A stretch of 64,000 nucleotides of DNA from Clostridia bacterium (GTDB lineage Bacteria > Bacillota > Clostridia > Christensenellales > QALW01). The notes under the pieces were generated by a model. It was not told the DNA's origin, searched no databases, and saw nothing but the letters and a program-made list of their open reading frames with translations. Below are positions 2,379-42,400 of the stretch, piece after piece. Position 1 is the first letter of the stretch. Every line of letters starts with the position of its first letter. Location: the NCBI GenBank assembly GCA_045541035.1, contig JAZQII010000057.1, forward strand, positions 708 to 64,707. Direction: 5' to 3'. A program made the position numbers and the translations under genes.

Positions 2379-3290
2379 TTAATATGTTTTCGTTATGAAA
2401 TAGTCTTCATCCAGTGCAGTTGCGCTTTCGAGTTGTTGAAACCCGTAAAACTTTTTACCGATTGCTGTTCTTGATATGTCACAGGTAATATCTACGTTCC
2501 ACCAAACACCGTCAAAATACACACGATTCCAAGTGTGGCGATCTGTGCTGTTTTTACGGGATATTCCGTCAACAGCGTAGCAAGAGATACCTTGACTACG
2601 GCAGAATACGGCGAACAGATGTGCAAAATCAAAGCAAAGTCCTTGCTTGGTTTGCAGTGTCTTGCGAACATCAAAGTATTGGAAGACTGGATAACAGTCG
2701 TAGTCATACTCGAAGTTGGCTATGATCCAATTATAAAAAGCCAGTACCTTTTCTTGATCGGTTTCACAATCGGCACAAATTTCGTCAGCAAGTTCTTCCG
2801 TTTGCGTGTCCCACAGGGTATCTCTACCGTTGGAAAGATAAGGGGCTTCCGGTTTGTAGACGAAATTATATGAGAAGAACAGAAGTACTGCAATAAATGC
2901 TGTTAGAACCAAGACACAAATTTTCGTCAGCAATTTATCCTTGCCGGAACTGTTATCGACTATACCAAAGTACATCATTTCGATAGCCGTTACCACAAAC
3001 GTCAGCATCGGCAGAAGCCTGCGGCAGGAAAAAGCGCTAACAATACTCATTATCATGACGAAAAATAGGACAATCAGCACGACCACCCGCATAGGTGTTG
3101 ACCGTATTTTCAGGACGAAAAATAAGGTCGGCAGTGCTGATAGCAAATACAATGTCACCAGCATCGGTGAAAGTACAAAAAAGTCTTTCAGATATATGCC
3201 CAACAGCAGATTGTATGCTGCCAGGATAAAAAAGAAAATAAAGCCGGATTTCGACTGCAATGTGATTGCAAATAATTTGGATATCTTCAC
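2379..3290 (-). CDS. polytopic membrane protein with C-terminal transglutaminase-like cysteine-protease domain
   Basis: The N-terminal half is hydrophobic and multi-TM. The C-terminal GLCFDFAHLF...DRHTWNRVYFDGVWWNVD has the Cys-His-Asp transglutaminase core pattern. Confidence 0.7.
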   Translation of the reverse strand: MKISKLFAITLQSKSGFIFFFILAAYNLLLGIYLKDFFVLSPMLVTLYLLSALPTLFFVLKIRSTPMRVVVLIVLFFVMIMSIVSAFSCRRLLPMLTFVVTAIEMMYFGIVDNSSGKDKLLTKICVLVLTAFIAVLLFFSYNFVYKPEAPYLSNGRDTLWDTQTEELADEICADCETDQEKVLAFYNWIIANFEYDYDCYPVFQYFDVRKTLQTKQGLCFDFAHLFAVFCRSQGISCYAVDGISRKNSTDRHTWNRVYFDGVWWNVDITCDISRTAIGKKFYGFQQLESATALDEDYFITKTY

Positions 3291-15578: not shown

Positions 15579-16622
15579 ATGTCAAGAGTAGTTAAAGTCG
15601 GCGTTGTTGGTTTAGGAAGAATCGGTATGTCCGTTCACCGTTGTTGCTTAAAGGATCGCCCCGATAAGTTCAAGGTTGTTGCGGCTTGCGATCTTATTGA
15701 GGACCGCGTAAAAAGATATGAGGACGAGTTCGGTTGCAAAGGCTATCTTAACATCGAAGATCTTATTAACGATCCTGAAGTTGAGGTTGTTGATATTGCA
15801 ACACGCTCCTGCGATCACTATATTCATTCAAAAATGGCACTTGAAGCAGGCAAAAGCGTTTTAGTTGAAAAGCCTTTCTGTGAAACCTATGAGCAGGCAA
15901 AGGAGCTTATTAAGTTAGGCTCACAGCCCGGCGGACCTAAGATCTACGTTCGCCATAACCGTCGCTTTGAGGAAGGCTTTATTAAAGTTAATGAGATCAT
16001 CAATTCAGGCATTTTAGGCGAAGTTTATGAGATAAAACTTACAAGAAACGAATATCAGAGAAGAAACGACTGGCAGACCATTATGGAGTTTGGCGGCGGT
16101 CAGCTTCTTAACTGGGGCCCCCACATTGTTGACCATTCAATTCAGTTCTGTGGCGGTGCTTACACCGAAATGTTTGCTGATATCAAGCGCGTTGCCGCAG
16201 TTGGTGATGCCGAAGACCATATTAAGCTCGTTTTCAAAGGCATAAACGGCAGAATCGTTGATATGGAAATCTCAGGCGGTGCCGCACTTCCCACTCCCGA
16301 ATACGTTATTTACGGCACAAAGGGTGCCTTGATCGGTGGCAACAACGAGTTTAAGTTAAAATATCTTGATCCCGAGGTTGAACTTCAGGATATTAAGGCT
16401 GATCCCTCCACACCCGGCTCATCATCAGCCTTTGGCAACAGCGAGGTTTTACAGTGGAAAGAAGAAACCATCACCTACGGCCCCTACGATAAGACCGCAG
16501 TTGTTTGGGACTATTTCTACGATGCTTACGTTAATAATAAGCCCTATCCCATTCCCAGCGAGCAAGCCCTTGAAGTTGTTCGCACCATCGAAAACGCCAA
16601 GATCGGCACTATCTTTAAATAA
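15579..16622 (+). CDS. Gfo/Idh/MocA family NAD(P)-dependent oxidoreductase
   Basis: N-terminal VKVGVVGLGRIG Rossmann loop and the EKP motif (VLVEKPF). Confidence 0.8.
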   Translation: MSRVVKVGVVGLGRIGMSVHRCCLKDRPDKFKVVAACDLIEDRVKRYEDEFGCKGYLNIEDLINDPEVEVVDIATRSCDHYIHSKMALEAGKSVLVEKPFCETYEQAKELIKLGSQPGGPKIYVRHNRRFEEGFIKVNEIINSGILGEVYEIKLTRNEYQRRNDWQTIMEFGGGQLLNWGPHIVDHSIQFCGGAYTEMFADIKRVAAVGDAEDHIKLVFKGINGRIVDMEISGGAALPTPEYVIYGTKGALIGGNNEFKLKYLDPEVELQDIKADPSTPGSSSAFGNSEVLQWKEETITYGPYDKTAVVWDYFYDAYVNNKPYPIPSEQALEVVRTIENAKIGTIFK

Positions 16623-16641
16623 TCTACAAAAATACTTATTA

Positions 16642-16673
16642 GGCACCTGCTTTTTGCAGGTGCCAATTTTTTT
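16642..16673 (+). terminator. intrinsic terminator of the sugar operon
   Basis: GGCACCTGC-ttttt-GCAGGTGCC followed by a T run. Confidence 0.8.
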
Positions 16674-16675
16674 AC

Positions 16676-16705
16676 TTTACATTTACTGAAAACCTATGTT
16701 ATAAT
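16676..16705 (+). promoter_or_regulatory. extended -10 promoter of LRR locus 1
   Basis: TTTACA (16676-16681), 18-nt spacer, TGtTATAAT (16697-16705). The same ATGTTATA(A/C)T box sits at the same distance from the leader arm in locus 2. Confidence 0.6.
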
Positions 16706-16711
16706 ACTTAT

Positions 16712-16897
16712 GCTCAACAAATCAATAAAGTTAAAAGGTGTAGTTTATCAACTTACGCTTATTTTTCGTTGTCAATTCACGAATTTGTAAAAATGCAAAT
16801 TCCACAGAATTGGCAATAGTTTACTATACCTTTTTTGATTTGTTGAGCGACAATCGGAGTTTGCGTTTTATGCGCCAACCTCGGTTGGCGCTTTTTT
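16712..16897 (+). promoter_or_regulatory. structured 5' leader with orphan intrinsic terminator (copy 1)
   Basis: Arms GCTCAACAAATCAA (16712-16725) and TTGATTTGTTGAGC (16835-16848). There is a nested helix at 16769-78/16807-16 and a hairpin at 16781-16802. The terminator GCGCCAACC-tcg-GTTGGCGC plus T6 lies at 16872-16897. Confidence 0.6.
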
Positions 16898-17010
16898 ATT
16901 TCAAAAACAAAGAAAATCCACGAAAGATGGATAAAACTCTACGACACGTAGGTTTATTATTTTTGGTATTAGGTTTATAATAAAATAAAAATAAATAAAG
17001 GAGAAGCATA

Positions 17011-20000
17011 ATGAAAAAAATCATTTCTTTAGCAATTTCCATATCAATTGCCATCGGTTTGTTTGCCGGATTGAACTTTAACGTTTCTATTCGGGCAGAA
17101 AGTGACGTTGCTGATCCATCAGTAACACCCATCGCAACATCTACTCCTACTCCTTCAGCTACAGCCATAGCAACTCCCACAGCTACACCTGCAACAAAGA
17201 AAGAAGTTGTAAACGGTAACGTTGAAAACGGCCTTGTAAACTGGGATAAGTTTGCAGCAGCAGGCGGTAAGGTTGAACTTACAACACCCGGTGCTGACGG
17301 CACAGGTCATGCAGCTAAGTTTACTGCTTCAGGTGTATATCATTCAATTGCATTTGACTTAGGTCCTGCAATCATTAACGCTCCTGAACACGGCTATAAC
17401 GGCGGCGGCGCAGGTTTGTACATGATCAGCTTCTGGGTAAAGGCTGATGCTAACGAAACAAACAACAAGTTTATATTCTTTCTTAACAGTCAGGCGCATC
17501 ATAGTCCCAATAATAAAGTGGGTGACTACACCGTTACAATGAACACCTACATCTCATCAGATTCTGTTACAATGACAACTGAGTGGCAGTATTTTGAGAC
17601 AACAATTGCTGTAACACAGGCATTCCTTGATAACCTTAAGGGTATCTATGATGCAGGCAAGCCTTCTGCATATCAGCTTATTCTCCGTCTTGACGGTTCA
17701 GGTTCTGCAAGTGCATTTGCAAACAGTGAGTTTTTCTCATATCATGTAGATGATGTTGCAATTTTAAAGACTTCAGATACAATTCCCACACCTACACCTA
17801 CACCTACACCTGTACCCACACCCACACCTACACCTCATCCGGTGTTACAGCATCTCACATATAGCACTTCCATCGGCAAAGTTACAATCACCGATTGCAA
17901 TACTTCAGTAAGCGGTGCATTGGAAATCCCCGCAACTATTGATGGTTATCCGGTAACAAGCATTGGCGATTCTGCATTCCGTAATTGCAGCAGTTTAACA
18001 AGCGTAACAATACCCGATAGTGTTACAAGTATTGGTGATTGGGCATTCGAAGGTTGCAGTAATTTAACAAGCGTAACAATACCCGACAGCGTAACAAGTA
18101 TTGGTTATGATGCATTCTATAATACTGCATATTATAATAACAGTAACAGATGGTCAAATAATGTTTTATACATAAACAATCATTTGGTTAAAGCAAAAAA
18201 CACAATTTCAGGTGAATATGCAATAAAAACAGGGACAAAAACTATTGCAACTTCTGCATTCGAAGGTTGCAGCGGTTTAACCAGCATAACAATACCCGAT
18301 AGTGTAACAAGTATTGATGGGCATGCATTTGGAGGTTGCAGCAGTTTAACCAGCATAACGATACCCGATAGTGTAACAAGCATTGGTAAATGGGCTTTCG
18401 AATATTGCAGCAGTTTAACAAGCGTAACAATAGGTAATAGCGTAACGAGTATTGGTGTGGCTGCATTCGAAGAATGCAAAAGTTTAACCAGCATAATAAT
18501 ACCCGATAGTGTAACAAGTATTGGTGGTCAGGCATTTGCTTGTTGCAATAGTTTGACAAGCGTAACAATAGGTAATAGCGTAACAAATATTGGTGAAAGG
18601 GCATTCTGCGGTTGTGATGGTTTAACCAGTATAACAATACCCGATAGCGTTATAAGTATTGGTGTTGATGCTTTCTCTGATTGCAGCAGTTTAAGCAGCA
18701 TAACAGTCGATGAAAATAATAAAAAGTATTATTCTGAAAATAATTGCCTTATTGAAAAAGACACAAACACGCTTATTTTAGGATGCAAAAATAGTGTTGT
18801 TCCCGATAGCGTGACAAGTATTGGTGATTCTGCATTCTATGGTTGCAGCAGTTTAACAAGCATAACAATACCCGATAGCGTAACAAGTATTGGTAGGTCT
18901 GCATTCTATGGTTGCAGCAGTTTAACAAGCATAATAATACCCGATAGCGTTACAAGTATTGGTACTTCTGCATTCCGTGATTGCAGCAGTTTAACAAGCG
19001 TAACGATACCCGATAGCGTTACAAGTATTGGTGATTCTGCATTCAATGGTTGCAGCAGTTTAACAAGCGTAACAATCCCCGATAGCGTTACAAGTATTGG
19101 CGCTATGGCATTCGAATATTGCAGCAATTTAACTAGCATAATAATACCCGATAGCGTTACAAGTATTGGTTATGAGGCATTCGCCGGTTGCAGCAGTTTA
19201 ACCAGCATAACAATACCCGATAGTGTAACAAGTATTGGTAGTTCTGCATTCGCCGGTTGCAGCAGTTTAACAAGCGTAACAATAGGTAATAGCGTAACGA
19301 GTATTGGTGTGGCTGCATTCGCCGGTTGCAGCAGTTTAACAAGCGTAACAATTCCCGATAGCGTTACAAGTATTGGTTATGAGGCATTCAATGGTTGCAG
19401 CAGTTTAACCAGCATAACAATCCCTGATAGCGTAACAAGTATTGGTGATGATGCATTCCATGATTGCAGCAGTTTAACCAGCATAACAATACCCGATAGT
19501 GTAACAAGTATTGACCATGGGGCATTCGCCAGTTGCAGCGGTTTAACAAGCATAACTGTTGATGAAAATAATGAAAAGTATTATTCTGAAAATAATTGCC
19601 TTATTGAAAAAGACACAAACACGCTTATTTTAGGATGCAAAAATAGTGTTATCCCAAATTGTATTACAAGTATTGGTGATCTTGCATTCTATAATTGCAG
19701 CAGTATAACAAGCATAACAATCCCCGATAGCGTTACAAGCATTGGCGATTCTGCATTCCGTAATTGCAGCAGTTTAACTAGCATAACAATACCTGATAGC
19801 GTAACAAGTATCGGTGATGATGCATTCAATGGTTGCAGCAGTTTAACAAGCGTAACGATACCCGATAGCGTAACAAGTATTGGTGGTTATGCATTCTCTG
19901 GTTGCAGCAGTTTAACAAGCATAACAATACCCGATAGCGTTACAAGTATTGGTTGGTATTCATTCTCTCGTTGCAGCGGTTTAACCAGCATAACAATACC

Positions 20001-21153
20001 CGATAGCGTAACAAGTATTGGCTATAATGCATTCCGTGATTGCAACAGTTTAAACACAGTATATTATATAGGCACAACAGAACAGTGGAATAATATTGTA
20101 ATTGATAATGGCAATGAGTATCTGACAACCGCAAATATTGTTTACAATTATGTTGTTGCTACACCTACACCTGTAGTTACTCCCACACCCACATCTACGC
20201 CTACACCCACACCTACACCCACACCTACATCTACACCTACACCTACACCAGCACCAATTTTTCAAGGCACAATCACCGGTGCGACCGTTGATATCGGATC
20301 AAGTCTTACCATCAACTATTTTGCTGAAGCACCTGAAGATGCTAAAATGAAATTTACTTCATCAAGCGGCAGAATTACAGAAGTTAATGGCGTTTATGAT
20401 GAAAAGACGGGCTATTATAAGTTTGCATACACGGGCATCAATCCTCAGTGTATGGGTGATACTATTAAGGCTGAACTTATGTGGGGGGATTATGTTCTTG
20501 ACACAAAGGAAAGCTACAGCGTAAAAGCATATTGTGAAAACCAGATATCAAAGTCCGCAAGTGATTTAGGCTTAACCGAAACTCAATATAACGCCCTTAA
20601 AACTCTTCTTGCCGATATGCTCGTTTACGGAAGCGAAGCACAGAAATATAAGGAGTATAATGTTTCCGAACTTCCTGATGTTGGCGAATGGGTAAGCACA
20701 AATAAAAGCACGTTTACTTCACCTACGGGCGTTAAAAAGGTAACGGGCAATGCTGATGCTGAAAACAAGGTAAAGTCCGTTGGCTTAAATATGGCAAACG
20801 TAAACAGAATCTACTTTAAATTGATTCTCAATGATGAAAACGTTGTTATTAAGTTGAATAATAAAGTAATTGACCGTTCAACCCTTATTACAAATGCTGA
20901 CGGAACGTTCTCACTTTATTCTTCCAATATTAAGGCAACGGGATTTGATAACGTTCACACCTTAACTCTCACACAAGGCGAAGAAGTTATTTCAACAGTT
21001 GAATATAACGTTAACGCATATATTCAATCAAAGAATGCTGATGCAACCGTAGGAGATATAGTAAAGGCATTATCTAACTACGGCACATCTGCAAAGCGTT
21101 ATCATAACTTTATTTCAGATGATGATTTTGATCTTGAAGGTGACGATCTTTAA
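17011..21153 (+). CDS. secreted giant BspA-type leucine-rich-repeat surface protein (CBM-like domain, PT linkers, LRR array, conserved C-terminal domain)
   Basis: Signal peptide MKKIISLAISISIAIGLFAG and TPTPTP linkers. There are dozens of 23-aa units of the form SLTS(I/V)[17 protein letters not shown]. The last ~295 aa are shared with 23378..26692. Confidence 0.85.
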   Translation: MKKIISLAISISIAIGLFAGLNFNVSIRAESDVADPSVTPIATSTPTPSATAIATPTATPATKKEVVNGNVENGLVNWDKFAAAGGKVELTTPGADGTGHAAKFTASGVYHSIAFDLGPAIINAPEHGYNGGGAGLYMISFWVKADANETNNKFIFFLNSQAHHSPNNKVGDYTVTMNTYISSDSVTMTTEWQYFETTIAVTQAFLDNLKGIYDAGKPSAYQLILRLDGSGSASAFANSEFFSYHVDDVAILKTSDTIPTPTPTPTPVPTPTPTPHPVLQHLTYSTSIGKVTITDCNTSVSGALEIPATIDGYPVTSIGDSAFRNCSSLTSVTIPDSVTSIGDWAFEGCSNLTSVTIPDSVTSIGYDAFYNTAYYNNSNRWSNNVLYINNHLVKAKNTISGEYAIKTGTKTIATSAFEGCSGLTSITIPDSVTSIDGHAFGGCSSLTSITIPDSVTSIGKWAFEYCSSLTSVTIGNSVTSIGVAAFEECKSLTSIIIPDSVTSIGGQAFACCNSLTSVTIGNSVTNIGERAFCGCDGLTSITIPDSVISIGVDAFSDCSSLSSITVDENNKKYYSENNCLIEKDTNTLILGCKNSVVPDSVTSIGDSAFYGCSSLTSITIPDSVTSIGRSAFYGCSSLTSIIIPDSVTSIGTSAFRDCSSLTSVTIPDSVTSIGDSAFNGCSSLTSVTIPDSVTSIGAMAFEYCSNLTSIIIPDSVTSIGYEAFAGCSSLTSITIPDSVTSIGSSAFAGCSSLTSVTIGNSVTSIGVAAFAGCSSLTSVTIPDSVTSIGYEAFNGCSSLTSITIPDSVTSIGDDAFHDCSSLTSITIPDSVTSIDHGAFASCSGLTSITVDENNEKYYSENNCLIEKDTNTLILGCKNSVIPNCITSIGDLAFYNCSSITSITIPDSVTSIGDSAFRNCSSLTSITIPDSVTSIGDDAFNGCSSLTSVTIPDSVTSIGGYAFSGCSSLTSITIPDSVTSIGWYSFSRCSGLTSITIPDSVTSIGYNAFRDCNSLNTVYYIGTTEQWNNIVIDNGNEYLTTANIVYNYVVATPTPVVTPTPTSTPTPTPTPTPTSTPTPTPAPIFQGTITGATVDIGSSLTINYFAEAPEDAKMKFTSSSGRITEVNGVYDEKTGYYKFAYTGINPQCMGDTIKAELMWGDYVLDTKESYSVKAYCENQISKSASDLGLTETQYNALKTLLADMLVYGSEAQKYKEYNVSELPDVGEWVSTNKSTFTSPTGVKKVTGNADAENKVKSVGLNMANVNRIYFKLILNDENVVIKLNNKVIDRSTLITNADGTFSLYSSNIKATGFDNVHTLTLTQGEEVISTVEYNVNAYIQSKNADATVGDIVKALSNYGTSAKRYHNFISDDDFDLEGDDL
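17850..20100 (+). repeat. in-frame 69-bp tandem coding repeats (LRR array) with an internal ~852-bp segmental duplication
   Basis: Near-identical units repeat throughout. The block GATGAAAATAAT(A/G)AAAAGTATTATTCTGAAAATAATTGCC... occurs at 18709 and again at 19561. Confidence 0.85.
20266..21153 (+). repeat. inner inverted repeat, arm 1 (codes the shared C-terminal domain)
   Basis: Reverse-complement match to 23378-24275. Most positions are identical by eye. Confidence 0.85.
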
Positions 21154-21159
21154 TACACC

Positions 21160-21192
21160 AAACTCCCGAAAATTTTCGGGAGTTTATTTTTC
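21160..21192 (+). terminator. intrinsic terminator
   Basis: AACTCCCGAAA / TTTCGGGAGTT stem followed by a T run. Confidence 0.8.
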
Positions 21193-21276
21193 ACAATAAT
21201 AAGTTTATTTTTAATCTTTAACTTTTAAGAAAAATATGGTAAAATAGATAAAAACAATAAAATAGGGAGAGTTTTT

Positions 21277-23337
21277 ATGGATAATTTTGTTTTTCCTTAT
21301 GATCTTGAAGGGTTAATTGACGTTACAAAACCGCCTTACAATGCCGATAACACGGGCAAGACCGATTGCACTAAGGCATTATGTCAGGCGATAGACGATA
21401 TTTTTCTTGAATATAAGCGTGCCTTTGACAAGACCGTTGAAAAGGTGAACAACACCGAGGGCGACGAAGTGTGGATCGGCTTTGAGATCCGCAGAGTTGA
21501 CGGCGTAAACTGCATTATTTGGCCTGAAAAGTTACCTCCCTCAAAGATAATCTATTTCCCCAACGGCACCTATCTTGTTTCTGACACAATCACTTATTCC
21601 TTAGAGCATTTCAGGAACATTTTCAACAACGTTCCCTATCTTGAAATGAACTGTCGCTTGCGCCTTATCGGGCAGAGTATGGAGGGCGTAACAATAAAAC
21701 TTCAGGATAACTGCAAGGGCTTTGAATATGGTACTGACCGCCCCGTTATCTCCTTTATGCGCGGTGAAGCATCAAACATTGCAATGACCAATATGCTCGA
21801 AAACTTCACCATTGATATCGGCAAGAATAACCCAGGTGCAACGGGTGTGGTTCATTTTGCCAATAATACGGGCGCGGCACGAAATCTTCGCATAATTTCA
21901 TCTGACGATAATTTCCGCGGAAGCGCAGGCTTTGCCATTATTCACGATAAGGCTTCTGCATGCATCGCAGATAATATTGAAGTTATCGGCTTTGATTATG
22001 GCTTCAAGGTAACGCCCCAAACGCACTTTGCATTCTTTGAGCATATTAAGGCAAAGAATCAGAAGCGCGCAGGCTTCTTTGTTGGCGATACCATCGTTTC
22101 CATTCACGATTACGAAAGCGAAAACGCTTGCCCTGCCTTACGTTGCACCGGCTTTGACGGACACACCGTTTGCATTGACGGTCGCTTTAAGGGCACAACG
22201 ATGAATGATTTTGCCGTGCGCCACGAGTTCGGCACACTTTATTTAAGGGATATTTTGGTGGAAAACTATTTCCACTCAATGTTCGGCTACTGTTCAGGCT
22301 ACGTTGACGGCGATTTAAAAGAATATTCATCCCACGGTCACGTTATGGGTCTTGATAAAGGCGAAGCCTTAACACTTAATCTGCCCATTGAAAGCACACC
22401 GAAAATTCCTTGGGAAGAACCTGAAAAGTGGGTTTCGGTAAATTCATTCGGTGCAGTTGGCGACGGCAAAACGCCTTGTTCTGATGCCATTCAAAAGGCT
22501 CTTGATTCAGGGGCATCAACGGTTTATTTTCAGCCGGGCAACTATTTAATTGATAAGCAGATAGTTATTCCCCCAACGGTAAACCGCATTAACTTTATGT
22601 ATTGCGACCTTTGTAACACTGATGAAATGAAAGAGCTTACCCACACGGGCGTATTTAAGGTTACGGGCGAAAGCGAAACTCCCCTTATTATTGAGGATCT
22701 TTTTGCCTTTGAGTATCTTTCGGGAATGAACACCTTAGTCGATCACGCTTCAACGCGAACACTTATTTTATCTGATCTTCACACTCAGGCACTTTCAATG
22801 TACTTTAACTCCGTTGAGGGCGGAAAAGTGTTTATGGAAAACGTAGGCTGTACTTTAGGCGGAATCCCCGGCACGGGCGGTCTTACCGATGAGGGCGAAA
22901 AGGAAAGAGAAAAACAGTTCCACTATTCACGTTCAACGCCCTGCTATCACTTTAAGGGACAAAAGGTTTGGGCTAGACAAATAAACCCCGAACGCAGTAA
23001 AACAGAGATCTTAAACGATCATTCCGACCTGTGGGTTTTGGGCTTTAAGGCTGAGGAAGAAGGCACCGCCTTTGAAACCATCAACGGCGGACGCACCGAG
23101 GTTTTCGGTGGAACACTTTGCATCTGCTACCGCGACCGTTTCCCTGCAATTATAAACCGTGATAGCGCAGTAAGCTTCATTTCCTCTTCCATCACCTATG
23201 CCAAGGACAAAATGTGGTCCCGCATCGTTGAGGAACATAAAGGCAACGAAACCCTCACCTTAACAAAAGACCAATTCCCCATCCGCTTTATGGACGTCAT
23301 CAGCGTTCCCCTTTATAAGGGTGATTTGAGGAAGTAA
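21277..23337 (+). CDS. two-lobed right-handed beta-helix protein (pectate-lyase superfamily / GH55-like)
   Basis: Two copies of the N-cap motif seen in Pectate_lyase_3/GH55 proteins (YNADNTGKTDCTKALCQAI; FGAVGDGKTPCSDAIQKALDSG). No signal peptide. Confidence 0.5.
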   Translation: MDNFVFPYDLEGLIDVTKPPYNADNTGKTDCTKALCQAIDDIFLEYKRAFDKTVEKVNNTEGDEVWIGFEIRRVDGVNCIIWPEKLPPSKIIYFPNGTYLVSDTITYSLEHFRNIFNNVPYLEMNCRLRLIGQSMEGVTIKLQDNCKGFEYGTDRPVISFMRGEASNIAMTNMLENFTIDIGKNNPGATGVVHFANNTGAARNLRIISSDDNFRGSAGFAIIHDKASACIADNIEVIGFDYGFKVTPQTHFAFFEHIKAKNQKRAGFFVGDTIVSIHDYESENACPALRCTGFDGHTVCIDGRFKGTTMNDFAVRHEFGTLYLRDILVENYFHSMFGYCSGYVDGDLKEYSSHGHVMGLDKGEALTLNLPIESTPKIPWEEPEKWVSVNSFGAVGDGKTPCSDAIQKALDSGASTVYFQPGNYLIDKQIVIPPTVNRINFMYCDLCNTDEMKELTHTGVFKVTGESETPLIIEDLFAFEYLSGMNTLVDHASTRTLILSDLHTQALSMYFNSVEGGKVFMENVGCTLGGIPGTGGLTDEGEKEREKQFHYSRSTPCYHFKGQKVWARQINPERSKTEILNDHSDLWVLGFKAEEEGTAFETINGGRTEVFGGTLCICYRDRFPAIINRDSAVSFISSSITYAKDKMWSRIVEEHKGNETLTLTKDQFPIRFMDVISVPLYKGDLRK

Positions 23338-23342
23338 TAGAA

Positions 23343-23375
23343 AAGACAGAAGTTTTAAAACTTCTGTCTTTTTTG
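23343..23375. terminator. bidirectional intrinsic terminator
   Basis: AAGACAGAAGTT-ttaa-AACTTCTGTCTT flanked by A and T runs, between convergent genes. Confidence 0.8.
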
Positions 23376-23377
23376 TG

Positions 23378-24275
23378 TTAAAGGATATCATCCTCAAGCT
23401 CGAACTGATTATCGCCAATTGGTTTAAATGAATCTGCATAATCAGCTGCCGACTTACCGTAGTTCGATAATGCTTTTACTATATTGCCAACCTTGGCATC
23501 AGCGTTCTTTGACTGAATATATGCGTTTACGTTATATTCAACTGTTGAAATAACATCTTCGCCTTGTGTAAGAGTTAAGGTATAAACATCATCAAAGCCC
23601 GTTGCATAGATATCCGAGGAATACAACATATATGTTCCGTCAGTATTTTTTATTAACTCTGCGCGGTCAATTACTTTATTATTCAACTTAATAACGACGT
23701 TTTCATCATTGAGAATCATTTTAAAGTAGATTCTGTTTACGTTCGCCATATTAAGACCAACAGATTTTACCTTGTTTTCAGCATCGGCATTGCCCGTTAC
23801 CTTTTTAACACCATCAGGAGTTTTAAAGGTGCTCTTATATTCGCTTACCCATTCACTTGCATCAGGAAGCTCGGAAACATTATAATCTTTATATTTTTGC
23901 GCTTCGCTTCCGTAAACAAGCATATCGGCAAGAAGAGTTTTAAGGGCGTTATATTGAGTTTCGGTTAAGCCTAAATCACTTGCAGATTTTGAGATCTGAT
24001 TTTCGCAATATGATTTTATGCTGTAGCTTTCCTTGGTGTCAAGAACATAATCCCCCCACATAAGTTCAGCCTTAATAGTATCACCCATACACTGAGGATT
24101 GATGCCCGTATATGCAAACTTATAATAGCCCGTCTTTTCATCAAGAACGCCATTAACTTCTGTAATTCTGCCGCTTGATGAAGTGAACTTCATTTTAGCA
24201 TCTTCAGGTGCTTCAGCAAAATAGTTGATGGTAAGAGTTGAGCCTACGTCAACGGTCGCACCGGTGACTGTGCCT
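23378..24275 (-). repeat. inner inverted repeat, arm 2
   Basis: Reverse complement of 20266-21153. It codes [42 protein letters not shown]... Confidence 0.85.
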
Positions 24276-26692
24276 TGGGGCTCTAATGTTTTAACTATAA
24301 GTGAAGCACTTAATGAACTTGCATAATATTTATCAGATTCAGCCTTTCGCTGATAGAAGAGATAGTTTGTTTCAGGATCAAGGTCAGTAAACACATTGCT
24401 TTCCTGCCAAGATACAGTATCCATCGAATACTCATAGCCATCAAATTTATTAAGGGTTATAGTATTATGAGTTTTATTTAAAAGCGTTGGTGTGTTAGGT
24501 GCTGTTTGTGTCCCTTTATCGGTTTTAAGTGTTGCGCCTGAACTTGATTTGCCAGCGTAATGGGTTTCACTTTCAGCATAACGTTGATAAAAAGTATGTT
24601 CTGTTCCACAATCGAGACCGTTAAATACGTTGCTTGCTTGCCATGTTTTGCCGTCAAGCGAATATTCACAGCCGTTAACAATATTAAGTGTTATGCTGTT
24701 TGCGGTAAAACTTTTTGCAGTTGGTGCCTCGGGAACAAGCATTTGCTTTGCCTTTTCCGTCTTAAATGTAATGCTTGCGCTTACGTTGCTAGCCTCGTGA
24801 GTTTCGTTTTCCTTGTAACGCTGATAGAAGGTATATTCTGTTCCGCTTAACAGATTACTGAACACATTGCTATCCTGCCAAGTAATGCCATCAAGAGAAT
24901 ATTCGCCATCTGTAAGATTCATAAGTGTTACGGAAGTATCGGTGAAATTTAACACTACGGGTGCCGATGGAGTGTTTTGTGCTGATTTAAAGGTAACAGA
25001 TACGCTTTCACTTATTTCACTTACCAATGCAATGCTTGATGCCTTTACCCTTTGATAAAATGTATAAGTTGTATCAGGTGAAAGATTTGCAAAAATATTG
25101 CTATTCTGCCATGTTATACCATCCTTTGAATATTCAAAACCTTCAAGTTTTACCAAAGTAACACTACTGTTAGTTTTACTTTCAACAATAGGCTTTTCAG
25201 GTGCTTTGCTATATTTACAAATATCGCAGGTGTGATTATTATTAAGCGTATAATTATGGTCAGGCACTGTGCGAATATCTTTACAAATATTGCATTCTGT
25301 ATCGCAAGCGTTGTCATAAGTATGAGTAATTGTTCTTATAAACTTACAAATATTACATTCTGTGTCACAGGTATTATCGTAAGTATGAGTAATTGTTCTT
25401 ACAAATTGACAAACGTTACATTCTGTATCGCAAACGTTGTCGAATGTATGTTCTGCTCTTTGAATACAACTGTTATAATAACGTGTTGCGTTTATTAAAT
25501 AACTATTACTATCGCCTTCTATTGAAATACTATTCCATTGCGCCTGTGTGCCGGTGTAATATACTGTCTTTAATTTGCTGCAACCATAGAATGCATGACC
25601 ACCAATACTTGTTACACTATCAGGTATCGTTACGCTTGTTAAACTACTGCAACCTTCGAATGCCATAGCACTAATACTTGTTACGCTATCAGGTATCGTT
25701 ACGCTTGTTAAACTGCTGCAATCACGGAATGCAGAATAACCAATACTTGTTACGCTATCACCTATTGTTACGCTTGTTAAACCGCTGCAACCATAGAATG
25801 CAGAATCGCCAATACTTGTTACGCTGTCGGGGATCGTTATACTTGTTAAACCGCTGCAATTAGCGAATGCAAAATCGCCAATATTTGTAACGCCATCAGG
25901 TATTGTTACGCTTGTTAAACTGCTGCAACCATAGAATGCACCACTACCAATACTTGTTACGGGATAGCCTTCAATCGTTGCGGGAATTTCCAATGTGCCA
26001 ATTGTCGAAGTGTTACAATCTATAATTGAAACTTTGCTGTTGTTGGAAATGCTATAACTATATGTAAGATACTGTAATATTGCATTAACGTAACCACAAT
26101 TCCATGTAGTGAACATTGTACCAACCAAATCGCCTTCTTCTGCTTCAATAACGAATGCAGTGCCAGAAGGTGCCGCTATGCCATCAACAGTATTGATATT
26201 TATGCGCATAAATAACTTTGAAACATCAACATACTGAATACCATTTAAAATATTGTCATTAACAATAATTACCTTGCCTGTTTCTGAGTCAATGGGAACT
26301 TCAATTACAAATGTATGCTTTTCACCGGGATGAATTACAGCAGTCTGGTCATAACCATACCAGCCCATTCCTCCTTCAGCGTTAACTGCAACTGTAGACT
26401 GAACGCAGTAGGAAAGGCTAATAGCATAACTGTTAAGGTTATAGAATGTTTGTGTCGAAGTAATATAGCCATTCTTTACGTCATCAGCAGTAAATACGTT
26501 TGCGCTTGAGGTAACATAATAATTGCTTGTTGTTTTTTTAAAGAAATAACCTGCTACGGTTTCCGTCTCTTTTGTTGATATAGAGGATGTAAGAGGTGTA
26601 TTTTTTTCTTCAGCACTAACAGTAAACATTACCATACTTACACAAGAAATTGCAAGTGTAAGTATAAGGATAAAAGATAATAATTTTTTCAT
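23378..26692 (-). CDS. secreted BspA-type LRR / Cys-rich repeat / FN3-like repeat surface protein with the shared C-terminal domain
   Basis: Signal peptide [21 protein letters not shown]. It has ~6 LRR units, three 21-aa HT(F/Y)DNxCDTECN(V/I)C repeats and four ~95-aa FN3-like repeats (..Y(S/E).DG.TWQ.SN.F..L...T.Y.FYQR). The C-terminal domain is shared with 17011..21153. Confidence 0.85.
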
Positions 26693-26705
26693 ATTTTCCT
26701 CCTAT

Positions 26706-27419
26706 TTATGCCTTGTTGCTAAAAATTTTAATTAAATCGTTTATAACCCAGCCACCCGGAATGGTTTTTTCAATTGCTTCCAAGCCAAGACTGATACCAG
26801 CCTTTTTTAACTTCGTTAAAAAAGATTTTTCAGTAAATTTCTCATTAAGCTCTGAATCTTTTTGCGAACGCTCATTAAGATTTTTTATAAAGTCTTTTTT
26901 GAGCGTTTTCATTTCTTTTTCGTTAAGTTTTTTCTCTAACTGATAGATATGAAGCAATAACTCAATAAAATATCCCGGTGGAATTTTTAATAGCTTTGAG
27001 TTAAGCTGAACCTCCACAAAGCCGCCAAGTGCTTCTATTGCCTGTTGCAATTCAAGGTAGACATTAGGATCGGGAATGCTTATAACAATCCTATCAGCGT
27101 TATCAAATACGGCGTTTTTGCTATATTCAATAAATGCATCATACCATTTATACTCACGCGGATAAATTAACTGTTTTTTTACTTTTAGTTGCCTTACCGT
27201 TGCTTGAGTGATCCCCAATTTTTTGCTCATTTCATAATCATCAAAGTTTTGTCCCGATTCTATCAGCTTGTCTAAATAAATCGAAAACATCAACAAGTCT
27301 ATTTGTGATTTATTAAAGCTGCCGAAATTTACGTTGTAGTAATTTTCTGCAATTTTGTCAAACAGCTTTGCCTTTTCTTGAGCTGATAATGACTTCATAA
27401 GCTCTATTCCCTTGCTCAT
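26706..27419 (-). CDS. hypothetical protein with a putative HTH segment, co-transcribed with the LRR gene
   Basis: SD GAAGGGAG. The stop lies 13 nt before the LRR gene start. MSKKLGITQATVRQLK looks HTH-like. I do not recognise a family. Confidence 0.5.
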   Translation of the reverse strand: MSKGIELMKSLSAQEKAKLFDKIAENYYNVNFGSFNKSQIDLLMFSIYLDKLIESGQNFDDYEMSKKLGITQATVRQLKVKKQLIYPREYKWYDAFIEYSKNAVFDNADRIVISIPDPNVYLELQQAIEALGGFVEVQLNSKLLKIPPGYFIELLLHIYQLEKKLNEKEMKTLKKDFIKNLNERSQKDSELNEKFTEKSFLTKLKKAGISLGLEAIEKTIPGGWVINDLIKIFSNKA

Positions 27420-27449: not shown

Positions 27450-27647
27450 AAAAAAGCGCCAACCGAGGCTGGCGCATAAAACGCAAACTCCGATTGTCGC
27501 GAAACAAAATTAAAAAACAGGTATATTAAATTACACACGCTTTCGTTGGAATTTGCATTTTTTCAAATTCGTTAAAAGCGTATGACAAAATAGAATATTA
27601 CCCAAAAATAGAAATATCCCTGTTTATCTTCTTTAATTTTGTTTCGC
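27450..27647 (-). promoter_or_regulatory. structured 5' leader with orphan intrinsic terminator (copy 2)
   Basis: Arms GCGAAACAAAATTAAA / TTTAATTTTGTTTCGC (27632-27647 / 27499-27514 on the minus strand). The helix ACGCTTT/AAAGCGT surrounds the same GAATTTG-N8-CAAATTC hairpin. The 3' 52 nt including the terminator differ from copy 1 at one position. Confidence 0.6.
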
Positions 27648-27653
27648 AAGGTT

Positions 27654-27682
27654 AGTATAACATAAAACAAAGGCTATCGCAA
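27654..27682 (-). promoter_or_regulatory. extended -10 promoter of LRR locus 2
   Basis: On the minus strand: TTGCGA (27677-27682), 17-nt spacer, TGtTATACT (27654-27662), then 6 nt to the leader arm. Confidence 0.55.
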
Positions 27683-39408: not shown

Positions 39409-42400
39409 TTACTTATTCTCGTTTTTCTTTCTTAACTTAACTGTGAAAACGATTCCGCCCGAAACGAACAGAAGTGCTGTCCACATAAGAAGTGTTCCGC
39501 CATCGCCGGTAGGTTTAGGTTCATCATAGCCGGGGGTGGGTGTAGGCTTCGGTGTGGGAGTTGGAGTGGGTGTAGGCGCTACGGGAGTAGGTGTGGGCGT
39601 AGGCTTAGTATATTTATTGGTAAATACTACGCTTGTATCTGCTGCACCGTTAATGAGAACATCAGCCTTAAGCGCGCCATCCTCATCAGTTACCGTGATC
39701 TCAACTGTATATTCAGTTGTATCATAGGTGATCTGTGCATCTGTGCCCTTCTTTTCCTTAATTACGTAATTGAAGGTGCCTTCTTCATCAAAGGTAAGTT
39801 CAAACTTAAATGCTTTGTCTTCGTTTCTTACAGTTTGTTTAAGTTCAGGAGTTCCGTTGATTACCTGATAAAGTTCAAATTCAAATACGTCCTCAGAAGT
39901 GATATCTCTGTTTTCAAGTTTCTTTTCGCCTTCAATAACAACTGTTGCATCAAGAGCATCATAAACGTTATTGAAAACTATATCGTCATCTGTTCCGTTA
40001 ACTATTTCCTCACCGTCTTTATAGATAGTGCGTGAAACTTCTTTAAGTTTACCGGTTGTATGATCATCCTCAACAACGATAGTTACGCCGTAAACAGTTT
40101 CATCATAATTCATACCGCCAAGTTTAGTATTTTCTTCAACGATATGATAATGATATGTGCCTGCAGCAAAGATCTTATCGGTCTTGAAGGTAAGTTTTTC
40201 GCCCATTGCGCCATCAACAGTATTGGAAATTTCCTTATATCCGTGGTTAACGTCAATTAAGCGGAACTTGAACTCGCCTGCCTTCATTTCTCTGCCAACA
40301 ATGCTCTTGAAAAGACTTATTTCAAGTTCAATGGGATCTGCCGCATAACTGTTATTAAAGATGATTGCCGCCTGCTGACCGTTCTGTGTGATTTCATAGG
40401 ATGCGTGAAGCTGACCGACTTTATCATCAACAACCGTTACGGTAATATCGTAAACTGCGCTGTCATAGGTAACGCCGTTAATGGTTGCGCCGCCGTTCTT
40501 TTCTCTTATGGTGTACTTATAAATACCTGCCTCATCATAAGTAAAGGTGTGGCTGATCTTGTTACCGCGGTTAAATACCGAAGTTTCATTTCTGTCCTCA
40601 TCAGTGATGATGAATTCAAAATCACCTGTTTGAAGATCCTTGCCACCTGCAAGATTCTTTATGCCTTCAATGGTAACAGAAACCTCTTCTGCCTCATAGG
40701 TATTGTTGAACACGATATTATCGTTGCCCGTAAGGCCGGTTATCTGAAGTTCACCTGAAACGTCTTCAACAGTAACGTCAACGTAATGTACGGTTCTATC
40801 AAAGGTTACACCCTTTTCAACGGGATAAACGTGGTGTTCAACAACCGCGTAACGACGAACACCGGGCTGAACGTAAGCGATTGGATCAAAGGTGAATGCA
40901 CCGCCTGCAAGGTTAGTTGTGCTCATAAGCCATTTATCGTTTTCAGGGTTAAACTGATTACCCTGAACAAGATAAAGATCAAAAGTGAACTCGCCTGCTT
41001 TCAGTTCTCTGCCCTGAAGATTCTTGACGCCGTTAATGACAAGCTGTGTACTTGTGGGTTTATAAACATTTACAAATTCAGGTGTTGTAACGTTTTGACC
41101 GTTTGCATCTTCCATTGCAACCGTTGCATCAATGGTGCCTTCTGTGGTATCAAAGAGTGTTATCTTAACCTTATAGGTTTTCGTATCGTATTCCATACCT
41201 CTGATACCGGTATCTATTTCTGCCAATACGTATTCATATTCTGCTTTACCCTCGATAAAATCAAGAGCTGAGAATTTAATTGTGATTTCAGCATTACCGT
41301 TTGCATCAGTTGCAGTTGACTCAACAATAGGATCGGTAAGCTCGGAGGGATCGTAAAGTGCAAACTCAAAACCGCGTGAAGTAAAGGAATTGCCTAAATT
41401 GCTGATAAGCTTCTTAACGGGAATTTCAACCGTTACGCTGCCCGTAGGTGCATAAGCGTTATCAAAGGTCATGCTTACTGTGTAAACATCATCGGGATTT
41501 TCCGTTACAACTGTTCTTAAAACATTCTCAACGTTTGCGATCTCAAGATATCCGTCCATATCAGTATCGGTTACCGTTACGCTGAAACGACGTGCATAAA
41601 CGTCATAAGTGATACCCTTATCAGAGGGGCCCTTAACCTCAGTTATATAATAGTTATAAGTGCCAACCTCATTAAACACTTCGTTTGTAAGATCGAAAAT
41701 TTCATAATAACCGTTATTTGAGGAAGCATCCTTATTTGTTACGGTTACCTGACCGATCTTATTATAATCAATGGTTGCACCGTTAACGTCCATACGGAAT
41801 ATCTCAAAAGAGAATGCGTCGGTATCTTTCCATGCTCTGCCTGAGAGAGCCTTGATAATCTGAACGTTTACCTGACCGTCTTCAGGACTTACGGGCTGTG
41901 CGGTATACTCGTTAACAAGTATTGCGTGTGCATTTACATTTGCATCAATTACACCGGTAAGTGCTCTGCTTACGTTTTCGTTAAGATCAAAGCCTGCAGG
42001 AAGATTTATTTCCGTTACCTTATAAGTGGTATCTTCGGGAATATCTCTTACAGTTACCGTTTCATCCTTTTTAAGTTCAACGGTAAATGCGCCGTTTCCA
42101 TCGGTAGTAACAGTTGAAAGACCGTTATTTTTAACGATAGTAAAGGTCTTGTTATTTACAAGGTCGCTCTTTACGTTTGCAAGTTCAACCTTCGCAGTAA
42201 ATGTAATATTATCGGGAACCTGATAATTTGTGCCGTAGGGATGATTTACGTTCTTTGTGATAAGAAGATTTCCTGATACTCTTGCAGTATTAAGGAAGTC
42301 AACATCCTCTAAAGCAAAACCTTTTACCGTGCCTGCTGCGGCAACTACTGCCTGACCGTTAATATGAACTGTCTTTACTTTATAATCTTCACTGTCAACT

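Follow-up and report, generated by a model that had tools for sequence, protein, structure and literature searches.

A recurrent structured RNA leader with two alternative linker pairings upstream of surface-protein genes in gut and rumen Clostridia

A structured leader precedes a gene for a BspA-type LRR protein

We analyzed a 64,000-nucleotide stretch of a Clostridia bacterium genome (assembly GCA_045541035.1, contig JAZQII010000057.1), hereafter the window, in which a gene for a 1380-aa BspA-type leucine-rich repeat (LRR) protein is preceded by a promoter and a long structured leader. This promoter-plus-leader cassette, which we call copy A, belongs to a widespread and apparently undescribed RNA family of gut and rumen Clostridia. 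It probably acts in cis as an attenuator, controlling the genes downstream of it by conditional transcription termination. The observation that carries this reading is that a short linker within the leader is complementary to two mutually exclusive partners, and that both pairings are conserved across the family. A preliminary description of the DNA had picked out the promoter, two complementary arms, an inner helix, a hairpin, a linker, a terminator and the terminator of the preceding operon, and we find every one of these features in place.

The promoter of copy A (16676-16705, plus strand, as is all of this copy) consists of a -35 box TTTACA at 16676-81, an 18-nt spacer and a TG-extended -10 box TATAAT at 16700-05; as TTTACA-18-TGtTATAAT it matches 11 of the 12 consensus positions. 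The predicted transcription start is G16712, the first base of the helix P1. The preceding operon has a terminator of its own (16642-64, then a T-run) upstream of copy A.

The RNA is predicted to fold into an almost uninterrupted rod whose 5' side carries a large bulge; an unpaired linker and a terminator come after the rod. The rod (16712-16848; inverted repeats I2 and I6), a putative sensor or anti-antiterminator domain, is closed by P1 (16712-25/16835-48), whose 14-nt arms are perfectly complementary and are lengthened by a repeat finder to 22 nt at 91%. Above P1 come P2 (16733-44/16823-34), the 5'-side bulge (16745-68), the 10-bp inner helix P3 (TTGTCAATTC at 16769-78 with GAATTGGCAA at 16807-16, one G.U) and an apical hairpin in which GAATTTG (16781-87) and CAAATTC (16796-802) are separated by 8 nt. 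We refer to the apical loop together with the 3' strand as region 2 (AAAAATGCAAATTCC, 16789-16803). The linker, a candidate switch strand of 23 nt (16849-16871), begins with the 17-mer GACAATCGGAGTTTGCG (16849-65) and ends in a U-run. The intrinsic terminator (GCGCCAACC-tc-GGTTGGCGC plus T6, 16872-16897) has its stem at 16872-79/16884-91, a CTCG loop and its T6 at 16892-97. As in transcriptional attenuators, it lies within the leader, upstream of the gene and co-oriented with it.

RNA 16712-16900 (189 nt) folds at -66.5 kcal/mol, against -33.7 ± 3.2 kcal/mol in 200 dinucleotide shuffles (z = -10.3, none as good). The 14-mer arm by itself is unremarkable: with up to two mismatches, at least two matches occurred in 29 of 100 shuffles. 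Copy A is remarkable for its whole fold and, above all, for the conservation of that fold in a second window copy and about 170 homologues. Where the preliminary description had envisaged a closing helix around a compact core with a terminator/antiterminator platform, the structured leader, the closing helix and the platform stand, since the rod covaries and the promoter places the predicted 5' end at P1. The compact core does not; in its place is a long rod whose apical 3' strand is complementary to the linker.

The leader is a member of a widespread family

Far from being an orphan, the leader is a member of a family, with a second copy in the window itself and about 170 relatives elsewhere. 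Self-BLAST of the window revealed a second full leader, copy B, on the minus strand (27450-27682). Its promoter has a -35 box TTGCGA at 27682-77, a 17-nt spacer and the string TGtTATACT, with the -10 box at 27659-54. P1 follows at 27647-32/27514-499, the apical GAATTTG at 27570-64, region 2 at about 27562-48, the 17-mer at 27498-82, the terminator at 27475-56 and its T6 at 27455-50. The 3'-most 55 nt of copies A and B are 98% identical, and their sole G/A difference keeps the terminator pair as a wobble. The 17-mer linker and the apical 3' strand do not differ between the copies, and the promoters are equivalent. The differences in P1 are compensatory (GCTCAACAAATCAA/TTGATTTGTTGAGC versus GCGAAACAAAATTAAA/TTTAATTTTGTTTCGC). 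A covariance model of the family (R1), run on the 64-kb window, scores copy B at 96.8 bits and copy A at 91.9 bits and finds no third copy.

Relatives were gathered in two samples, both with exact anchors, so the taxonomic range reported here is that of a biased sample and the counts are lower bounds. An exact scan for the 17-mer in GTDB contigs, with one genome per species, returned at least 118 genome loci. About 109 of those listed share a common layout of sigma-A promoter, long rod, conserved 17-mer linker, terminator and a co-oriented gene, often for a secreted protein, lipoprotein or membrane protein. The carriers are Christensenellaceae, Oscillospiraceae, Acutalibacteraceae, Lachnospiraceae, Ruminococcus, genomes labelled Faecalibacterium and other Clostridia metagenome-assembled genomes, and the hosts of the carrier assemblies include humans, ruminants, rabbits and other animals sampled from the gut. 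A scan of metagenomes anchored on the P1 3' arm plus GACAAT added at least 120 further gut and rumen loci with many linker variants, most of them with the common layout. After filtering, 174 distinct copies with 42 linker types were retained.

The preliminary description had proposed copy A as a candidate new element, and nothing in Rfam 15 contradicts this. At the gathering threshold no family, including T-box, PyrR site, c-di-GMP-I/II, ydaO and Clostridiales-1, matched anywhere in the window, with only sub-threshold noise at 16550-17100 (E up to 10), and none matched at the elements of 12 other family loci. Text searches of the literature with conserved strings and keyword combinations turned up no description of the leader, and its motif strings are absent from the first 200 supplementary files of a human-microbiome structured-RNA catalogue (PMC8040213). 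One family locus, L012, does carry a known RNA, Gut-1 (RF01706, 74 bits; 2890-2967, minus strand), together with several tRNA genes, a few kb from its leader. A phage origin was considered and rejected: in viral contigs the 17-mer had only four matches (L119-L122), to one unrelated G-rich sequence, which we attribute to chance.

A -10 box is present in 108 of the 115 copies checked, and in 92 precisely 6 nt separate its end from the first G of P1; 93 have the TG extension and 83 a -35 box. Because the -10 box is fixed 6 nt before P1, the RNA most likely begins with P1.

The rod covaries and keeps a single orientation

Across the family, several types of base pair occur at positions 3, 5 and 10-14 of P1, with compensatory changes; positions 1-10 were partly selected for when copies were filtered. 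Since the inner helices were not recovered when full-length copies were aligned globally with MAFFT, we tested inner-rod covariation by folding chimeras that join the 5' half of one copy to the 3' half of another. Native inner rods fold at -38.6 kcal/mol and chimeras at -25.0 kcal/mol, and fewer than 1% of the chimeras reach the native mean. The inner helices are divergent in sequence but paired. In every case the 5' half of the rod exceeds the 3' half by about 55 nt, and the bulge lies on the 5' side in 99/99 copies from different species.

These observations bear on an invertible switch of the type known from C. difficile cwpV, which the preliminary description had offered as one explanation. 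There the 14-nt arms would be recombinase sites, and a flip of 16726-16834 would decide termination. Copy A resembles cwpV in that inverted repeats, here perfect over 14 nt, separate a promoter from a cell-surface gene; an orphan terminator follows the repeats of copy A, and in cwpV too termination in the leader decides expression. However, the arms of copy A are the base of an RNA rod that covaries throughout, the terminator (16872-97) lies outside the arms (16712-16848), and the interior must hold its orientation if the conserved pseudoknot described below is to form. All 99 copies, as assembled, have the long strand on the 5' side. No recombinase gene lies within about 10 kb, although a recombinase encoded at a distant locus could also act on the arms. 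We consider inversion extremely improbable.

The multiplicity of the element also invites comparison with palindromic mobile DNA. A multi-copy palindrome of about 140 nt with terminal inverted repeats could be an element like a miniature inverted-repeat transposable element or, given that a 5'-terminal stem can stabilize mRNA, a mere stabilizing hairpin that does no switching. Yet the copies differ from one another by compensatory changes instead of being near-identical, and promoter, orientation and terminator are all fixed relative to the genes. Neither idea explains why both alternative pairings of the linker covary, and we find both highly improbable.

Many canonical members share junction motifs, namely GGGAUA.UUAUACCC followed by U6, located in the additional 55 nt or so of the 5' half, and an AAUAA internal loop. 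Several variants of the rod were also observed. A short-rod subtype (L123, L127, L132, L134, L140-L144, L151, L153, L162, L164, L170, L196, L214, L231 and L241), with, for example, UAAAAAUACAGAUGCUCU as tip and GGAGCUAUGU as linker, is without the GGGAUA...UACCC junction and keeps the A-run/U-run and both alternative pairings; L127 has one short-rod copy and, about 270 nt away, a canonical-like one. A short relative that lacks the long rod (L133 on the minus strand, L148, L160, L203, L222 and L232) keeps the promoter, P1 (GCCAAAGAAAGTT.../...AACTTTGTTTGGC) and GACAAT. The loop of its P1, ATGTCTAAGCAGTTAT, is perfectly complementary over 16 nt to a stretch within the loop of a downstream terminator-like stem (CCTCA...TGAGG-T7), so that this short relative is predicted to follow the same loop-to-downstream logic with a different sequence.

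Leaders may also be closely spaced, as in L049 (two copies, 256 nt apart), L106 (284 nt apart), L094, L115, L064 and L216. Some of these stand in series before one gene, as tandem riboswitches would, and the two copies of L216 diverge on opposite strands. At about position 2345 of L107, a P1 3' arm and an exact 17-mer follow an ordinary terminator, with neither rod nor leader terminator; this remnant suggests decay or recombination of a former copy.

The linker can pair with the apical loop or with the terminator

Linker bases 16856-69 of copy A are complementary to region 2, and the overlapping bases 16851-65 are complementary to the terminator at 16873-87. The first pairing, of AAAAUGCAAAUUCC (16790-16803) with GGAGUUUGCGUUUU (16856-69), would form a long-range pseudoknot with a duplex energy of -18.4 kcal/mol. 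We examined it in alignment A3, which spans the apical hairpin to the terminator in 112 sequences and in which MAFFT placed linker-subtype indels only approximately. The 15 pairs of the family pseudoknot are paired in 93.8% of cells, and 8 of them show double substitutions. Double-change cells number 67, against 18.2 ± 4.1 in shuffled controls (0/500 shuffles as high). When the register is slid, pairing drops to 66% or less. Indels in the two strands match as well, GGAG-UUGCG linkers occurring with CGCA(A/G)CUCC tips and GUG linkers with CAC tips. The pseudoknot is the best-conserved pairing of all in the family, and the local apical hairpin, which shares its 3' strand with the pseudoknot, is only 76% paired.

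The second pairing joins CAAUCGGAGUUUGCG (16851-65) to CGCCAACCUCGGUUG (16873-87), which comprises the 5' arm, the loop and the first 3'-arm bases of the terminator, and would act as an antiterminator. The preliminary description had noticed an imperfect match of GGAGTTTGCG to the 5' half of the terminator. This pairing is real and longer than was proposed (CAATCGGAGTTTGCG with CGCCAACCTCGGTTG, 13 of 15 positions paired in copy A); what that scheme had missed is the linker's other partner, the apical 3' strand. RNAalifold proposed the antiterminator helix unprompted on a 22-sequence seed. In the family it is paired in 92.7% of cells, compared with at most 54% in slid registers, and its covariation score is reached by 5/500 shuffles. 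Its double-change cells, largely G.U-tolerant changes, give a modest excess of 17 over 9.6 in shuffles (12/500 as high). In L144, a member of the short-rod subtype, the pairing is complete (UGGAGCUAUGU/GUAUAGCUUCG, 11/11). The family terminator is itself 94-97% paired, with covariation.

An alignment-free test over the 42 linker types agrees with the alignment. For both pairings, cognate duplexes are more stable than non-cognate ones by about 4 kcal/mol (0/10000 permutations), and for linker and region 2 the energies are -17.3 kcal/mol for cognate and -12.9 kcal/mol for non-cognate duplexes (0/10000 permutations). All the parts are conserved and every pairing covaries, and the compensatory changes that the preliminary description would have homologous leaders show are present in rod, pseudoknot and antiterminator. 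We ascribe the sequence conservation to these overlapping demands: it is because the linker is under triple pairing constraints that the 17-mer is identical across families of Clostridia, that the loop and 3' arm of the terminator show sequence conservation, and that conservation is higher in the apical 3' strand than in the strand with which it pairs locally.

The predicted energies of the competing structures are similar. In the window copies the pseudoknot is worth -18.4 kcal/mol and the terminator alone -16.4 kcal/mol, and the antiterminator ranges from -14.5 kcal/mol in the nascent RNA to -20.5 kcal/mol in the tail alone, so that an isolated tail favors the antiterminator over the terminator. 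The apical hairpin contributes -7.6 kcal/mol in copy A and -5.2 kcal/mol in copy B (overall -5 to -8 kcal/mol), and the pseudoknot has a net gain of about 11-13 kcal/mol after the loss of this hairpin. By these energies, a state with pseudoknot and terminator and a state with apical hairpin and antiterminator are predicted to be close in the window copies.

Other roles for this segment were tried and rejected. Sequence inspection found that the AUG/GUG past the linker is not conserved as an open reading frame, the common variant reading GUG-CGU-UAA, which argues against a leader peptide. Neither a helix between the 5' arm of P1 and the 3' arm of the terminator nor a UUGU/ACAA mini-hairpin covaried in variants with altered P1. 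Mimicry of a CsrA site or a Shine-Dalgarno sequence by the GGAG of the linker was dismissed as well, the GGA being lost in such common variants as CGGGGU and UAAAGU.

The leaders often precede genes for envelope proteins

The longest downstream open frame is co-oriented with the leader in 142/161 cases (88%), compared with 58/141 (41%) upstream, and in the family its start codon often lies 15-30 nt past the T-tract and has a ribosome-binding site. Of 99 downstream proteins, 15 contain LRR_5 and the majority have no Pfam match; the other classes are zinc-ribbon/SHOCT, Listeria-Bacteroides repeat, collagen-like, WG-repeat and DUF6809 proteins. An N-terminal signal or anchor is predicted in 53/99, 26 of them with a lipobox, and a transmembrane-like segment in 64/99. 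Judged by these predictions, the regulated proteins are heterogeneous yet centered on the envelope. The upstream neighbors (n = 111) are housekeeping or miscellaneous genes from 110 different Pfam families, the commonest of which, HTH_3, occurs in only 5. We looked among them for a locally encoded regulator and rejected the idea, as Pfam revealed no recurrent partner.

This gene linkage weighs against another explanation, in which the cassette is a free-standing gene for a small RNA (sRNA) of about 185 nt, the 17-mer is a seed acting in trans and the nearby gene is incidental. A strong promoter and terminator, a conserved unpaired stretch between hairpins and the presence of several copies per genome region would all suit an sRNA. 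Such a gene would not account for the antiterminator or for the linkage to genes, however: co-orientation is 88% downstream and 41% upstream, a ribosome-binding site often comes directly past the terminator, and the 17-mer covaries with partners inside its own leader, the terminator included. Different linker types also occur on one contig (L127, L216), and therefore neither a shared trans target nor trans cross-talk between copies is required. An independent sRNA gene is improbable in our view, and the terminated product might conceivably have an sRNA role in addition.

In the window, copy A heads two open reading frames (17011-23337, plus strand), the LRR gene (17011-21153; LRR_5, E = 1e-231) and a gene for a 686-aa pectate-lyase-like protein (21277-23337; Pect-lyase_RHGA_epim, E = 2e-28). 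The ATG of the LRR gene at 17011 lies 113 nt past the T-run, an unusually long spacer for the family. Within this spacer (16898-17010) lie a small hairpin resembling a terminator (16938-52) and, at about 16974-79, a TATAAT-like box in AT-rich sequence, which could provide the LRR gene with a second promoter that does not depend on the leader. The genes behind copy B (23378-27419, minus strand) encode a 237-aa protein without a Pfam match (26706-27419) and a 1104-aa BspA-type LRR protein (23378-26692; LRR_5, E = 3e-46), and this operon converges on that of copy A. The gap of about 40 nt between them (23337-23378) holds a palindromic hairpin (23341-23372), scored on both strands, that is probably a shared bidirectional terminator of both operons. 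The window also encodes a 1909-aa pilin/adhesin-like protein with FctA isopeptide domains, VWA and DUF7601 (39409-45138, minus strand), for which the covariance model found no leader copy.

A model for conditional termination

The reading that we favor, cis-acting attenuation, assigns a role to each of these parts. A constitutive-looking sigma-A promoter would start the RNA at the first base of the rod (P1-P2-P3-apical hairpin), and the linker ACAAUCGGAGUUUGCG with its U-run would emerge straight after the rod and face two mutually exclusive partners. If it paired with partner A, the A-rich apical loop and 3' strand, the resulting long-range pseudoknot of about 15 bp would serve as an anti-antiterminator: the linker would be locked away, the terminator would form, and an RNA of about 185 nt would be released (OFF). 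If it paired instead with partner B, the terminator's 5' arm and loop together with the beginning of its 3' arm, the antiterminator would block the terminator and RNA polymerase would read into the LRR or other surface-protein genes (ON). The weak apical hairpin, formed by strands 1 and 2, would compete by keeping partner A unavailable. The leader would then be a chain of four linked pairings, with strands 1:2 as the apical hairpin, 2:3 as the pseudoknot, 3:4 as the antiterminator and 4:5 as the terminator. Termination at the leader terminator, the default state and the cause of any shift in balance are all conjectural parts of this scheme.

What might shift the balance is suggested by the geometry of the rod. 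Bending at the 5'-side bulge or opening of P1 would offer a natural point of action for an effector or for folding kinetics, and pausing of the polymerase at the U-run after the linker is one kinetic possibility. Our best guess is that a trans-acting effector or folding kinetics would act on the bent rod or apical loop, rather than that a small molecule would bind a classical pocket.

A classical riboswitch deserves consideration nonetheless. Rod and junction would then make up a ligand pocket, the ligand would stabilize the pseudoknot (OFF) or prevent it (ON), and a metabolite or second messenger would control a regulon of surface proteins. Such a riboswitch is expected to have what the leader does have, a structured domain, a pseudoknot to the 3' tail and a terminator/antiterminator pair. 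Many canonical members share the GGGAUA.UUAUACCC-U6 and AAUAA junction motifs, and the downstream genes form a coherent envelope and surface class, a class also seen for cyclic-dinucleotide riboswitches. Yet it is the expression platform and the pseudoknot that are most conserved, not the junction, which is degenerate in the window copies and absent from short-rod subtypes that follow the same logic. The gene context points to no ligand, and the 15-bp pseudoknot is predicted to be stable without one. Because the expression platform is more conserved than the junction, and because short-rod subtypes keep the logic and different linker types share a contig, we rank a metabolite pocket below a protein- or chaperone-assisted or kinetic switch and regard it as rather unlikely.

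Several points weigh against attenuation as we have drawn it. Both samples were gathered with exact anchors, which makes the conservation of the anchors partly a product of construction, and the relatedness of the sequences inflates the shuffle statistics, as the shuffle controls ignore phylogeny. The double-substitution support for the antiterminator is modest. The transcription start, the short terminated RNA and read-through are each predicted from sequence. The pseudoknot would have to bring the tip of the rod close to the base of P1, which, judging from helix lengths, would be sterically possible only with a sharp bend of the rod or an opening of P1. Both window copies have a degenerate junction region, and no effector, whether ligand or protein, emerged from the analysis, the case for attenuation being drawn from RNA architecture.

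Relation to known switches and significance

Cis-acting attenuation of this kind has close parallels. In three-tier attenuators, such as the Bacillus pyr leader with PyrR and in the logic of trp leaders, a 5' leader likewise chooses among three mutually exclusive structures, the anti-antiterminator, the antiterminator and the terminator, and in pyr-type attenuators, as here, the anti-antiterminator ties up a strand that otherwise serves as the antiterminator's 5' strand. The present leader differs from pyr in that its anti-antiterminator would be a long-range pseudoknot between the tip of a rod of about 137 nt and the linker, not a local hairpin, and in that it has no PyrR-type site or Rfam match and precedes genes for surface and secreted proteins. 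Pairing of a sensor loop with the 3' tail also sets the choice between terminator and antiterminator in the ZTP/pfl, fluoride and preQ1 riboswitches and in the kissing loop of AdoCbl riboswitches. Compared with these pseudoknot-gated riboswitches, the leader's pseudoknot is unusually long (about 15 bp) and is its most conserved element, while the would-be binding junction varies and no Rfam family matches.

Processive antitermination offers a further comparison. RfaH with ops/JUMPstart, LoaP leaders and UpxY of Bacteroides also combine a conserved leader element and an early terminator before genes for accessory surface or secreted products, and there, too, many loci per genome share the element. 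Unlike in those systems, the conservation of the 17-mer is explained by two RNA partners, and no NusG-paralogue gene is linked to the leader among the 111 upstream neighbors.

We put forward more tentatively the possibility that gut and rumen Clostridia have in this leader a new class of regulatory RNA. The leader may be an orphan riboswitch for an unrecognized signal or an effector-assisted three-state switch, which would use the pseudoknot anti-antiterminator to gate in a coordinated manner a dispersed regulon whose products are BspA-type LRR adhesins, lipoproteins and small membrane proteins. An anti-antiterminator in the form of a loop-to-tail pseudoknot of about 15 bp, combined with a promoter whose position is tied to the first base of the RNA, would be unusual among terminator switches.

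BspA-type LRR proteins and other surface and secreted proteins shape the contact of gut Clostridia, including Christensenellaceae, Oscillospiraceae and Acutalibacteraceae, with the host and with each other. To our knowledge, almost nothing is known of how such surface proteins are regulated, since their carriers are mostly uncultured. One easily recognized leader before many of these genes means that a regulon can be defined from sequence alone. The leader also provides a direct experimental handle, and the effector of an orphan switch of this kind could reveal a new signal.

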